From positions 1 to 64,000 of IMG/VR virus record IMGVR_UViG_3300010882_000011: a stretch of 64,000 nt of DNA. One strand, given 5' to 3'. This DNA is from a virus (taxonomy: Duplodnaviria > Heunggongvirae > Uroviricota > Caudoviricetes). Position 1 is the stretch's first letter, and each line of letters begins with the position of its first letter. Both the position numbers and the translations under genes were made by a program. This document shows, piece after piece, positions 8,164 to 23,203 of the stretch. The notes beneath the pieces were generated by a model. That model was not told the DNA's origin and did no database searches. It worked only from the letters and a program-made list of their open reading frames with translations.

Positions 8164-8235
8164 TGCGGGAGGTGGATTCAAACCACCGACCTTGAGATTA
8201 TGAGACTCATGAGCTAATCACTGCTCTATCCCGCA
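8164..8235 (-). tRNA. tRNA, anticodon CAT (Met/Ile2-type)
   Basis: Manual cloverleaf on the minus strand: acceptor tgcggga/tcccgca, D-arm gagc...gctc, anticodon stem tgagt/(t)ctca with loop CTCATAA, T-arm ggtgg-TTTGAAT-ccacc. Confidence 0.6.
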
Positions 8236-8339
8236 ATATAATAAAATAATTTCACCTGAAGTACGACTGCTCTTACGATTTTACGTCCGTGTCGTCGCCA
8301 ATACCTCTTGACTTGTCCTTGAGTTCCAAGATGAAATAA

Positions 8340-8372
8340 AAATAAAGGCTGTTTAAGGTACAGCCTTTAAAA
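8340..8372 (-). terminator. rho-independent terminator downstream of the SPFH gene
   Basis: 8-bp stem aaggctgt/acagcctt with 7-nt loop, followed on the minus strand by a T-rich run. Confidence 0.5.
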
Positions 8373-8421
8373 CCTAGTTGTAAAGTTCCCCTAGTCGTTT
8401 TTCAGAGGAGTACGACCAAAC

Positions 8422-10143
8422 CTATTTCGTTTCAGGAAGAGATTTCTTTCCGAATACATCGCTAATCATACCAGCAATTGGCATAACTTTATCAAGGATG
8501 TTTCCTGCAGTTTGTGCCCAAAGTGCACCACCATGCGTAGTATCCATAACTTGAACATTACCGAAATTCAATGATTTCATAGCGATAGCCTGTTGATCAG
8601 CAATATGGTTGAAAGTTCCCTCTGTAACCATCTTATACTGAACAGCTAATTGCGGATTTTGTTCTCCTGCTTGTACCATCGCGGCAAAACCTTCTGCCTG
8701 TGCTATTGCAGATGCTCTTTCTCCCTCAGCAGCAGCCAAACCTTTCAAGCGAATAACTTCTGCTTCCGCTTGACCTCTTGCCAAAATACCTTCGCCTTCT
8801 CCTTTACCCTGCAAAGAAGCTCCTTCCCCTATACCTTTACCTTCCAATACAGCAGCTTCTGAAACAGCCTGAGCGTTGAACACTCTAGCTCTCTTTTCAC
8901 CTTCTGCATTAGCGGCTTTAGCGTTAGCTTCACCTTGTGCGGTAATTTTTGCGGTATTAGCATTAGCTTCAGCTTTCTTTTCAAGTTCAAGCTGATATGC
9001 TTCTGCTTTTAATAATGCTTCTTTCTTTGCAATGTCGGCAGGTACAATTTTATCGGCAGTTAACGCCGCTTCGTTACGTTGAGCACGAGCTTCTTCTGCT
9101 ATTTTACGAGCAAGTTCCTTCTCCTGTTCAACTTTTGCCTCTGCCTGCACAACAGATACACGCGCTTCTTCACGTTTAGCTTCGGCTTTAACAACCTCTA
9201 CTTGTGCGAGTTCTCTGTTTTTTTCAACCTGTGCCAATGCTTGAACATTTGCAGTTTCTGCACGCTGCATAGCTTCTGCTCTGGTAATTTTTAATTCCGC
9301 ATCTTTATCAACAACAGTTTGTTCAGCAGCAATTTCACCAATACGACCTTCGGATTCTGCTTTCGCTACACTAATATCACGGTCTCTCACTTGCTCAGCA
9401 ACTTGAGAATCCTTTTGTGAGTTTGCAGTAGCAACGGCAACGTCCTTTAATTTATTAGTTTCGGCAACTGTAGAATCCTGAATTTTTCTTTGCTCGGCAA
9501 TATCAATAGCTCCTCTTTTATCAGCAGTAGCTACGTCAACGTTCGCCTGGTTAATGGCAGCAGCTTTATCACGCTGTCCCCAAGCAACAATCATGCCAGC
9601 CTCATCCTTAATGTCAGTAAAGTTAACATTGATAAGTTTCAAACCTATCTTGTTCAACTCCGTGTTAACCAACATAGTAGCTTCGGATATCAATTTATCA
9701 CGTTGCGAAATCAATTCCGCCACATCCATATTAGCAACAATTGCTCTTAACTGACCAAACACAATATCCTGAACAAGATTACTCAAAGTCTTCTCATTCA
9801 TATTCAGAATTCTTTCTGCAGCGTTTTGCATAATATTCGGCTCAGTAGATACACCAGCCGTTACTATAGCAGGAACTGCAACACGGATATTTTGTTTAGA
9901 AATGGCATCTGTCAAGTTACAAGTAATCTGGAATGGTTTCAAATCAATAAATGTATATCCCTGGATGATAGGCCAAATGAAGGCGGCACCACCATGAACA
10001 CATTTTGCGGATTTGTTTTTGCCAGTTTTACCATACACAACAAGAATCTTGTCAGATGGGCATTTCTTGAATCTTGATAAGATTGCAAAAATGGTTATTA
10101 AACCAAGTAGTGCAGCTGCACCAATAATGATAAGTAAATTCAT
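8422..10143 (-). CDS. SPFH/band-7 (flotillin-like) membrane protein
   Basis: N-terminal TM then band-7 core, followed by a very long Ala/Glu/Lys/Gln-rich coiled-coil (AEAK...EKKAEANA...) typical of flotillin/YqiK. Confidence 0.65.
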   Translation of the reverse strand: MNLLIIIGAAALLGLITIFAILSRFKKCPSDKILVVYGKTGKNKSAKCVHGGAAFIWPIIQGYTFIDLKPFQITCNLTDAISKQNIRVAVPAIVTAGVSTEPNIMQNAAERILNMNEKTLSNLVQDIVFGQLRAIVANMDVAELISQRDKLISEATMLVNTELNKIGLKLINVNFTDIKDEAGMIVAWGQRDKAAAINQANVDVATADKRGAIDIAEQRKIQDSTVAETNKLKDVAVATANSQKDSQVAEQVRDRDISVAKAESEGRIGEIAAEQTVVDKDAELKITRAEAMQRAETANVQALAQVEKNRELAQVEVVKAEAKREEARVSVVQAEAKVEQEKELARKIAEEARAQRNEAALTADKIVPADIAKKEALLKAEAYQLELEKKAEANANTAKITAQGEANAKAANAEGEKRARVFNAQAVSEAAVLEGKGIGEGASLQGKGEGEGILARGQAEAEVIRLKGLAAAEGERASAIAQAEGFAAMVQAGEQNPQLAVQYKMVTEGTFNHIADQQAIAMKSLNFGNVQVMDTTHGGALWAQTAGNILDKVMPIAGMISDVFGKKSLPETK

Positions 10144-10148
10144 CTTCT

Positions 10149-10655
10149 TTAACTGTTTTTCTTAATAAATTTAAGGTCGTTTCTCTTTCCAGAGACGGTG
10201 ATTTTTTCACCAGTTCGTAGTTTTACTTCTTCGTTGTCGGAAGTGAAGGGTAACGTTTTCTGTGTTCCTTCAAGGGTTAACGTAACTTCACCGCATTGGA
10301 TTCCTTCATCATAGAAGTAAACCTCTCCAGGTGCGTTAGTTATTTCCTGTTCATAATCAATTTCTTGTTTGAGTGATTTATACACAAACCTATATAACCA
10401 TCCAAGTATAACCACGAAGGCTATACCGACTGCTACTGCTATTGCCCATACGGCAACAGTAGATGCAGTCCCGAATAATGTTAAGGTTAATGTTACTCCA
10501 ATAACGAAGTGGATTATTCCTTTCAAGGAGAAAATATCTCCAAATCCAAAGTCGTGATCGAAGTCTAAATCAAAATCTCCTAAGAAAAATGACATGAAAA
10601 CCTGTAGCACCAGGATAATGCAACAGGCAATTAAGGCAATTGTGTACCAAGCCAT
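10149..10655 (-). CDS. NfeD-like membrane protein (partner of the SPFH protein)
   Basis: Several N-terminal TM helices plus a C-terminal soluble beta-rich domain; 6 nt downstream of the SPFH gene, the classic NfeD-SPFH arrangement. Confidence 0.5.
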   Translation of the reverse strand: MAWYTIALIACCIILVLQVFMSFFLGDFDLDFDHDFGFGDIFSLKGIIHFVIGVTLTLTLFGTASTVAVWAIAVAVGIAFVVILGWLYRFVYKSLKQEIDYEQEITNAPGEVYFYDEGIQCGEVTLTLEGTQKTLPFTSDNEEVKLRTGEKITVSGKRNDLKFIKKNS

Positions 10656-21818: not shown

Positions 21819-22076
21819 TTACTTCCTCAAATTTTCATTGTACCATTCCTCTTTCCATATGTTGTATTGTTCTTCACGAACATAAAAATGCTCTTTCTTA
21901 AAGTTATCGTAGTCGGTGCGGAATTTATCGAAAAGGTATATAAGGTCACTCTCTGATTGAACAGGAGTATTTACTGGATAGTCTTCAATTAATACTGTTT
22001 TAACAGGACATATTTTGTTTTGTTCTTGTAGAAGTTTTTGGTAGTGGTTGTACTTTCTTGGATTCATGTTTATCAT
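21819..22076 (-). CDS. hypothetical protein
   Basis: Track ORF of 85 aa; its ATG overlaps the upstream TGA stop (ATGA). Confidence 0.45.
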   Translation of the reverse strand: MINMNPRKYNHYQKLLQEQNKICPVKTVLIEDYPVNTPVQSESDLIYLFDKFRTDYDNFKKEHFYVREEQYNIWKEEWYNENLRK

Positions 22077-22267
22077 GTGTATAAGATTCCTACTATAACT
22101 CTATCACCTTGTGTGGTGATACTGTAATGGTGTATTGTAGCAGTTGGATTTTTTGCCAGCCATAGATTCACATCGGCATCAATGAGGCTAACAAAAGTAA
22201 TGAATGTTTTGTGTAACATATATTGTTTATTAGTTTTAAAAGAAAATCCCTCATCAAGCTTATTCAT
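22073..22267 (-). CDS. hypothetical protein
   Basis: Track ORF of 64 aa ending in TGA used as a stop. Confidence 0.4.
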   Translation of the reverse strand: MNKLDEGFSFKTNKQYMLHKTFITFVSLIDADVNLWLAKNPTATIHHYSITTQGDRVIVGILYT

Positions 22268-22383
22268 TTAGATGCATTACTGCATATACCTTTAACGCGA
22301 GCCTTACCAGCGCTGGTCATTATCGCATGCCTTTATAGCCGTGTATCCTCAATGCGCAAACGAGAGGAGTGAGGGATTAGATG

Positions 22384-22563
22384 TTAGAAATTTTCCATTA
22401 ACCAATTAGTCCAAAAAGCACTCTTCTCTTCTTGAGACATAGATTGAGTTTGCACAAAACCTTGTAATGCCTGCGTAACTAATGTCAGTGCCTCAGCACT
22501 TGTAAAAGTTTTAAACCCTTTACCTGCCTTCTTCAGGTCTTCAATAATTTTTTCTGCGTTCAT
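22384..22563 (-). CDS. small helical protein (~59 aa, approximate)
   Basis: Minus-strand reading MNAEKIIEDLKKAGKGFKTF...WLMENF*; preceded by the conserved upstream element. Confidence 0.35.
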   Translation of the reverse strand: MNAEKIIEDLKKAGKGFKTFTSAEALTLVTQALQGFVQTQSMSQEEKSAFWTNWLMENF

Positions 22564-23130
22564 AATATAAATTGTTTAATGTGTTTTACACCTAAAAATA
22601 TCCTGTACGTCAACCGCACTTAAGCGTCATATACTGATAATAAACTGGTGTCCTCAACATCTTGGAAAGTTATTGAGTTTTGAAACCGCTATAAAAAACA
22701 CAAGCGATTTAGTAATTTAAGGCAATCCGCACCAGCGGCAAGTTTAACACAGTGGTAGAAATAATAATGTCATCCGTATTACTATTGGAATTATTTCTAG
22801 TTGTGACCACACTCGCTGCCTTTCAGTCTAGAGCAGCTGTTTAACAGAGTGGATTTTATTTATAATTACTCAACCAAAAAAAGACGTTCTGCTACGAAAT
22901 TTTTTGTTTAATTAAAAGGTAACTGAGGATCTGCCCCCCTATAACCTACAGCTCAACAAACCTCATAATGTACAAAGAGGAAAAAGGCAGCTATACCGTA
23001 CAACACCCGATTTGTTTTTGTTGATTCGGGTTACCTTTATGATCTGCATATGAGAATCGAACTCATTAGAAAGGGACAGAATCCACGTCTGTTTTATATA
23101 CTCCTCTCTATTACCAAAAATGCAAATACG

Positions 23131-23203
23131 ATCTGCAGCCAGGATTTGAACCTGAATTCCGCGCATAACCGAAGCGCGTGTTCTACCATTAAACTACCAC
23201 AGA
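23131..23203 (-). tRNA. tRNA-like gene with atypical 9-nt anticodon loop (identity unresolved)
   Basis: Acceptor tctgtgg/ctgcaga, U8-A9, T-arm tcagg-TTCAAAT-cctgg. Anticodon stem cgcgc/gcgcg encloses TTCGGTTAT (9 nt); alternatively a 7-nt loop TCGGTTA with a U-U closing mismatch. Confidence 0.4.

Follow-up and report, generated by a model that had tools for sequence, protein, structure and literature searches.

A phage-encoded Trp-type tRNA(UCA) with a second anticodon-like arm as the probable decoder of UGA in the late genes of a crAss-like phage

The crAss-like phages of the Zeta group have genomes of 145-192 kilobases (kb), read TGA as Trp mostly in their late genes, and carry a block of tRNA genes that includes a tRNA-Sup-TCA (PMC12386605; PMC7886860). 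In the code-change model of Borges et al. (bioRxiv 10.1101/2021.08.26.457843), the suppressor tRNA lies among genes that are compatible with the standard code, the recoded stops lie in structural and lysis genes, and the change of code bears on the timing of late translation, since these recoded genes can be translated only after the suppressor has been made. Some recoded phages in which no suppressor can be detected have also been noted in the literature (PMC12386605; PMC7886860). In this study, we analyzed a stretch of 64,000 nucleotides (nt) of viral DNA (positions 1 to 64,000 of the IMG/VR record IMGVR_UViG_3300010882_000011; hereafter the window), for which an earlier note had listed four tRNA-like genes but none with the UCA anticodon expected of a tRNA that decodes UGA as Trp. 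The analysis points with high confidence to a Trp-type tRNA(UCA) that is encoded by the phage itself, about 7 kb beyond position 1 of the window. This tRNA carries, in its variable region, a second hairpin whose loop resembles the wild-type anticodon loop of tRNA-Trp.

UGA in the late genes and its decoder

When TGA was treated as a sense codon, the coverage of the window by open reading frames (ORFs) of at least 100 amino acids (aa) rose from 71% to 90%, and the longest ORF grew from 1059 to 1722 aa. The use of TGA is bipartite: the ratio TGA/(TGA+TGG) is 0.09 in the block of minus-strand genes and 0.52 in the plus-strand block that holds the structural genes (Fisher p = 5e-14). Under code 11, 29 of the 42 long ORFs of the plus-strand block are truncated by TGA, and 35 of the 39 long ORFs of the minus-strand block end with TAA or TAG. 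The identity of the inserted amino acid was examined by tblastn of the large terminase subunit (TerL) and the portal protein against 48 related IMG/VR loci. Residue 144 of TerL, a TGA codon in the window, is aligned with W in 29 relatives and with TGA in 19, and residue 270 with W in 26, TGA in 18, and F in 4; portal residue 416 is aligned with W in 27 and with TGA in 13. Conversely, the positions that are TGG in the window in these two genes are aligned with W or TGA. F or Y is found occasionally at the TGA positions, and Ser only once. The match of TerL to phrog_6681 covers residues 85-716 and thus five of its six TGA codons. Because the TGA positions are aligned with W or with TGA in the relatives, TGA means Trp here, and not Ser, Gly, or Sec, and the premise of the earlier note that UGA is decoded as Trp therefore holds.

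The suppressor was found on a contig of 170,034 bp (locus L049) that overlaps the left part of the window (121-12247, 12.1 kb) with 0 mismatches. ARAGORN predicted on it a cluster of five tRNA genes, Asp(GUC)-Sup(UCA)-Pro(UGG)-Leu(UAA)-Arg(UCU), of which the second is the tRNA(UCA). Its acceptor stem, AGGGGAA/UUCCCCU followed by G73, contains A1-U72, G2-C71, G3-C70, G4-C69, and G5-C68, and the tRNA has the 7/5 geometry. The anticodon arm is CCAGU-CUUCAAA-ACUGG, in which U34-C35-A36 forms the anticodon and only C34 has been changed to U. According to a published review, the determinants of bacterial tRNA-Trp are G73, A1-U72, the pairs from G2-C71 to G5-C68, and the anticodon C34-C35-A36; the tRNA(UCA) has all of those in the acceptor end, whereas C34-C35-A36 is missing from its decoding arm. 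The 5' half of the molecule matches annotated Bacillus phage tRNA-Trp genes at 90%. We are thus confident that the decoder of UGA is this Trp-type tRNA(UCA) beyond the window, in a crAss-like phage that uses TGA as Trp in its late genes. The earlier note had named a suppressor elsewhere in the genome as the first of three options and had recommended searching for a tRNA-Trp with a C34-to-U change, and the gene in the left flank answers to both descriptions. The absence of a tRNA(UCA) from the window is an effect of where the window ends, and the case is a caution that absence from a sampled window is not absence from a genome.

ARAGORN labels the gene as tRNA-SeC, and the tRNA has a long variable region and shares G73 with selC. 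Long variable arms are recognized by seryl-tRNA synthetase (SerRS; published review), and the 94-nt tRNA(UCA) could accordingly be taken for a tRNA-Sec, or for a tRNA that is charged with Ser through this arm, in which case there would be no Trp suppressor. However, the best model in the Rfam clan is the general tRNA model (RF00005, 60.7 bits) and not that of tRNA-Sec (RF01852), on which the two bacterial selC-type genes that we checked (L178 and L226) scored 75-81 bits. The 8/5 branch, the 6-bp D stem, and the G1-C72 pair of tRNA-Sec are all lacking: the tRNA(UCA) has the 7/5 geometry, a 4-bp D stem, and A1-U72, in contrast to the selC-like phage tRNAs with 8/5 and G1-C72. In addition, the TGA positions are aligned with W, F, or Y and only once with S, and the dozens of in-frame TGA codons per gene block do not show the pattern of selenoproteins. 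We consider this interpretation exceedingly improbable.

It could also be supposed that the host supplies the decoder, either as a code-4 organism or through a suppressor of its own, and that the phage needs none, which was the second option of the earlier note. This would agree with the lack of a UCA tRNA within the window and with the recoded phages without a detectable suppressor that are known from the literature. However, the phage does carry a Trp-type tRNA(UCA), and the near-complete avoidance of in-frame TGA in the minus-strand block would be pointless if the host read TGA as Trp. A host-supplied decoder is thus highly unlikely, and the phage tRNA(UCA) is preferred.

With the phage tRNA(UCA) as the decoder, the code switch might proceed as follows. 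The TGA-free genes and the suppressor would be expressed under the standard code of the host, the suppressor would be charged with Trp by the tryptophanyl-tRNA synthetase (TrpRS) of the host, the in-frame UGA codons of the terminase, portal, and tail genes would then be read through, and the late proteins would be made only after the switch. The charging enzyme and the timing of suppressor expression are suggested here by analogy. Several points weigh against our interpretation. The avoidance of TGA is strong but not absolute, as 4 of the 39 long ORFs of the minus-strand block end at TGA. The suppressor was seen on a contig that is identical over the 12.1-kb overlap, and not on the window itself. 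The sequence examined, which consists of the window and flanks of about 8.9 kb on each side, amounts to about 83 kb of a genome of about 170 kb, and other suppressors, or a TrpRS or release factor of the phage, may be encoded elsewhere. Finally, the division into early and late expression and the charging by the host TrpRS are modeled on published systems.

The tRNA genes of the window and the genome around it

ARAGORN and the Rfam model RF00005 agree on exactly four tRNA genes in the window, all of them on the minus strand (Table 1) and within 1-2 nt of the positions given in the earlier note. Its statement that no UCA anticodon is present in the window was also confirmed. The Rfam scan of the window at E<=10 found nothing tRNA-like beyond the four genes, and ARAGORN found no TCA anticodon there when its thresholds were lowered to 90% and 80%, whether introns were allowed or not. 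The sole "tca" call came from the very permissive mitochondrial mode and was a 58-nt armless hit on the opposite strand, overlapping the tRNA-Met gene. The third option of the earlier note, that its manual anticodon calls were wrong, can be dropped, as these calls proved to be right.

The two tRNA-Glu(UUC) genes were of particular concern, as UCA occurs in both of their anticodon loops at positions 35-37, one base out of register, and the earlier note had given a UCA fold of either gene as an example of a result that would overturn its statement. In principle, one of the window tRNAs might be the real UGA decoder, either a Glu tRNA read out of register or the fourth tRNA, whose abnormal loop makes its decoding unpredictable. 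However, both Glu genes form a cloverleaf (which is the minimum-energy structure of copy 1) with a canonical 7-nt loop, U33, U34-U35-C36, and A37, and the anticodon is fixed as UUC by U33 and A37. Their D arms, which we take to be of the Glu type, speak against such a decoder as well. The 9-nt loop UUCGGUUAU of the fourth tRNA contains no UCA in either reading, the TGA positions are aligned with Trp and not with Glu, and a proper UCA tRNA exists in the genome. We give a UGA decoder within the window next to no chance. The four window tRNAs (CAU, UUC, UUC, and the one with the 9-nt loop) do not decode UGA.

The earlier note had found it odd that two tRNAs with the same UUC anticodon lie 180 nt apart. 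Both genes proved to be real and to carry UUC, and no suppressor is hidden in them. The two copies have about 63% identity to each other; to judge by their sequences, they are different Glu tRNAs and not a recent duplicate. GAA accounts for 79% of the Glu codons, which is sufficient reason for the phage to carry two Glu tRNAs. The 178-nt spacer between them (17434-17611, minus strand) contains an 8-bp hairpin (UUAUACUU/AAGUAUAA), a possible terminator or processing site, for which no match was found in Rfam.

The tRNA(CAU) is elongator-like: positions 1 and 72 are paired, and the anticodon stem is without the three G-C pairs of initiators. It may be a Met acceptor or a lysidine-modified Ile2, between which the sequence gives no choice. 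The atypical gene at 23130-23203 has regular acceptor, D, and T arms, and its loop has 6 bases where the Rfam model has 4. In the intron mode of ARAGORN, it is called Lys(CUU), with C34 followed by an inserted GG, and the loop would be a perfect one for Lys(CUU) if this GG were removed. The D loop of the gene, AAUGGUA, is also that of the phage suppressor tRNA(UCA). No relatives of this tRNA were found in the IMG/VR scan. The gene may be a pseudogene, or it may serve as a decoy or as a non-triplet decoder.

Table 1. Coordinates of the features discussed, in window positions except for the suppressor, which lies on the left flanking contig
Feature	Position	Strand	Characteristics
Hexanucleotide repeat (GGCTCT, GGCGAT, GGCTAT)	1-120		Inside a minus-strand gene; copy number varies between assemblies
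Standard-code-compatible block	121-28100	minus	Nucleotide and cofactor metabolism genes (Pfam); all four tRNA genes
tRNA(CAU)	8162-8235	minus	ARAGORN CAT; Rfam 61.6 bits
tRNA-Glu(UUC), copy 1	17361-17433	minus	ARAGORN TTC; Rfam 64.7 bits; loop CUUUCAU; D-loop AAGUGGUUAAG; no encoded CCA end
tRNA-Glu(UUC), copy 2	17612-17685	minus	ARAGORN TTC; Rfam 54.1 bits; loop UUUUCAU; D-arm GUCUAGCGACAGGAC; CCA end encoded
Atypical tRNA-like gene	23130-23203	minus	Rfam 48.4 bits; ARAGORN Pro(CGG); 9-nt anticodon loop UUCGGUUAU
Structural (late) block	28450-64000	plus	TGA = Trp
1078-aa late protein	29342-32578	plus	12 in-frame TGA, 0 TGG
Large terminase subunit (TerL), 761 aa	39459-41744	plus	6 in-frame TGA; phrog_6681, E = 3e-62
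Portal protein	42102-44321	plus	4 in-frame TGA, 0 TGG; phrog_6547, E = 5e-45
Suppressor tRNA(UCA), 94 nt	L049:19221-19314, about 7 kb beyond position 1 of the window	strand of the TGA-free genes	ARAGORN

The earlier note had taken the window for about two-thirds of a phage of about 100 kb. The genome is in fact about 170 kb, of which the window makes up about 38%. The protein encoded at 1117-2247 on the minus strand is encoded exactly on two ENA contigs of 170,034 and 170,139 bp, and that at 62230-62886 on both of these and on a third one, from JGI, of 170,142 bp. On the right side, window positions 52230-64000 are matched by three contigs (L353, L354, and L355) with 0 mismatches, and the right flank of 8.9 kb contains no tRNA. 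The copy number of the repeat at 1-120 is the sole difference between the window and the flanking contigs; one of the 170-kb contigs starts inside this repeat, where the left edge of the window also lies.

No match among the GenBank phages was obtained by megablast with 48 kb of the window. In tblastn with TerL, the nearest annotated phages are crAss-like, with 28-29% identity, and two unannotated faecal contigs are closer (47% and 38.5%). The relatives in IMG/VR reach 74% TerL identity, and many of them are on contigs of 97-201 kb. A gene in the right flank matches the Pfam family CrAss_Ring_1 weakly. In its size, coding pattern, and TerL affinity, as distinct from a phylogeny, the phage appears to fit the Zeta group of the crAss-like phages.

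Among the late genes, the neighbours of the portal gene and of the gene for the 1078-aa protein use TGA and TGG mixed. The TGA-free block contains a module that resembles NAD+ salvage and nucleotide metabolism, extending over L049:13273-18381 to the left of the window and 1117-2247 and 6036-7140 within it; its genes encode an isochorismatase-family protein, NAPRTase, NAD synthase, a phosphoribosyltransferase, adenylosuccinate synthetase, CoaE, and a cytidylyltransferase-like protein. For ten proteins of the minus-strand block, Pfam gave no families.

The second anticodon-like arm of the suppressor

A recoded crAss-like phage with its own suppressor is of a known kind, and it is the two-arm architecture of the tRNA that is the part of interest. 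The variable region of the tRNA(UCA) has 23 bases more than that of an ordinary tRNA-Trp, and the molecule is laid out as A26 [CCAGU CUUCAAA ACUGG] GAACA [CUGGU GUCCAAA GCCAG] AAGU [T arm]. The additional bases fold into a hairpin of 5 bp with a 7-nt loop, which contains the normal Trp anticodon CCA between a U33-like base and A37/A38-like flanks. A minimum-energy fold of the 94 nt in which both arms pair together was rejected, as this pairing is not conserved in the homologues, whereas the two separate hairpins are.

The architecture is not confined to this phage. A scan of IMG/VR with the two loops and the T loop gave 96 matches against about 10 expected by chance, and most of them are clear tRNA(UCA) on different contigs. 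A second scan with the Trp-type D arm and the UCA loop, in which the variable region was ignored, gave 36 matches (31 distinct), 25 of which have the extra arm and 6 a normal 5-nt variable loop; the loop of the 25 arms is always N-UCCAAA, except for one UCCAUA. A third scan that was blind to both the body and the arm gave at least 119 matches; of the tRNA(UCA) loci among the matches listed, about 45% have a CCA-loop arm, about 33% a short variable loop, and about 23% another long arm. The other long-armed tRNA(UCA), of which 16 are distinct, are selC-like, with 8/5 geometry, G1-C72, and loops without the motif. In JGI metagenome_contigs, a collection that apparently does not hold the present contig, the exact two-arm core had no match, and the 5' half, used as the pattern, led to one further phage contig (L358), which carries 20 tRNAs.

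The two-arm architecture was found in 62 distinct viral tRNA(UCA) sequences (L049, L055-L157, L358, and others). G73 is present in all of them, U72 in 59 (49 as A1-U72), and a fully paired 7-bp acceptor stem with 7/5 geometry in 60. When 26 distinct members of the Trp type were aligned, 93.6% pairing was found in the extra helix. Four of its five pairs have changed on both sides, which is as good as in the canonical helices, and the loop U-C-C-A-x-A is invariant. The arm appears to be specific for the UCA tRNA: in the same phage loci, a CCA-loop arm was found in none of the 22 distinct tRNA-Trp(CCA), none of about 85 Leu, Ser, and Tyr tRNAs, and none of 7 amber suppressors. In five loci (L073, L085, L095, L142, and L083), the two-arm tRNA(UCA) lies 4-12 nt from an ordinary tRNA-Trp(CCA) of 74-76 nt. 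Many phages thus carry both a two-arm tRNA(UCA) and a tRNA-Trp(CCA), as a tandem pair.

BLAST against GenBank phages gave matches to tRNA-Trp for both parts of the molecule. Bases 50-96 of a typical member, which comprise the second arm, a 4-nt variable loop, the T arm, and the 3' strand of the acceptor stem, match the 3' part of tRNA-Trp(CCA) at about 85%, and bases 6-40 match the 5' part of tRNA-Trp. No record among the GenBank phages matched at least 80% of either of the two two-arm queries. Going by these matches, the simplest origin would be a tandem duplication of the anticodon arm of tRNA-Trp, followed by a change of C34 to U in the 5' copy.

A scan of bacterial genomes with the two-arm pattern returned mostly chance matches (about 100 expected in 596 Gb), together with 18 real tRNA(UCA), 14 of which are selC-like with the variable-arm loop UCCAAAAG. 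That the phage arm was simply inherited from tRNA-Sec was considered and rejected, as the Rfam consensus of tRNA-Sec does not conserve the loop UCCAAAAG. Bacterial selC-type tRNA(UCA) genes with the loop UCCAAA(AG) and covarying stems (L168, L178, L215, L226, L228, L250, L258, and L259) include those of Alphaproteobacteria, Bryobacterales, Armatimonadota, and Nitrospirae, in a sample that was selected by the pattern and gives no estimate of frequency.

In the literature that we covered, which is incomplete and includes the main works on recoded phages and on phage UCA suppressors, the extra arm is not described. The two-arm architecture may thus provisionally be called undescribed. Seki et al. 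reportedly tested 31 phage tRNA(UCA) sequences in 2025.

We tentatively suggest that the second arm could be a handle for TrpRS: the 3' arm (N-U-C-C-A-A-A) would restore the lost C34-C35-A36 to the enzyme, and the 5' arm (UCA) would read the codon. We regard this as possible rather than probable. With such a handle, a tRNA that reads UGA would be charged efficiently in a standard-code host. The occurrence of the arm in UCA tRNAs only, its conserved loop on a drifting stem, its presence on more than one type of tRNA body, and the constant G73 and U72 fit a surrogate for the anticodon that TrpRS recognizes. TrpRS, like its paralogue TyrRS, binds the tRNA across the dimer from the side of the variable arm, which makes a contact with the arm plausible. 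C34, C35, and A36 are major determinants for TrpRS (published review).

Other roles have to be weighed against that of a handle. A second decoding head for UGG is argued against by the base at the equivalent of position 32, which is G in over half of the second arms, as anticodon loops that function in decoding nearly always have a pyrimidine there and very rarely G. The arm may instead be a relic with a structural role, or a processing signal. It may also be a site for a MiaA-type modification, and the A36-A37-A38 context is present in the second arm. If the handle hypothesis is true, it would account for the way in which phages can switch the code in a host that is itself unmodified. The identity elements of tRNAs would then include a new kind, namely, an anticodon mimic inside a tRNA, and the work on genetic code expansion would gain a principle by which to design UGA-suppressor tRNAs that are efficient.

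Comparison with known recoded phages, suppressors, and anticodon mimics

The closest described phages are those of the Zeta group (Lera and ct1yV3, PMC12386605; cMAGs of Yutin et al. 2021, PMC7886860). The present phage shares with them a genome size of about 170 kb, which is within their range, the concentration of in-frame TGA in the structural block including TerL, a TerL and portal that appear to be crAss-like, and a block of tRNA genes containing a tRNA-Sup-TCA that is predicted to carry Trp. It differs in having no close relative among the GenBank phages, its best TerL match, the 47% noted above, being to an unannotated faecal contig. With the code-change phages of Borges et al., it has in common a suppressor among standard-code genes and recoded structural genes. 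However, the Jade phages of that work carry TrpRS or RF1, and neither a TrpRS nor a release factor was recognized by Pfam in the sequence examined here.

As a tRNA, the suppressor can be compared with the opal suppressors derived from tRNA-Trp. Known tRNA-Trp(UCA) with a C34-to-U change, which occur in E. coli mutants, Mycoplasma, and mitochondria, are ordinary type I tRNAs of 74-76 nt. The phage tRNA shares with them the tRNA-Trp body, the identity set of G73, A1-U72, and G2-C71 to G5-C68, and the anticodon UCA, but its variable region holds an additional 23-nt hairpin, in which the loop of 7 nt is a repeat of the wild-type N-U-C-C-A-A-A. Between their anticodon and T arms, the type II tRNAs (Leu, Ser, and Tyr) and tRNA-Sec also have an additional helix, and they share G73 as well. 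The variable arm of type II tRNAs has a short loop of 3-5 nt and is joined by linkers of 1-2 nt to a type II core. In contrast, the phage arm has a conserved 7-nt anticodon-like loop and single-stranded linkers of 4-5 nt and sits on a type I Trp body, so that the tRNA(UCA) does not belong to the type II class.

For the handle hypothesis, the nearest parallels lie outside of tRNA. The operator of the thrS mRNA is said to be bound by threonyl-tRNA synthetase as a mimic of the anticodon arm, and a similar mimic in an mRNA has reportedly been found for histidyl-tRNA synthetase in yeast. What these would share with the proposed handle is a hairpin that copies the cognate anticodon loop and serves as a site for the synthetase. 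They are located in mRNAs and are regulatory, whereas the mimic hypothesized here would lie inside the tRNA and serve its aminoacylation.

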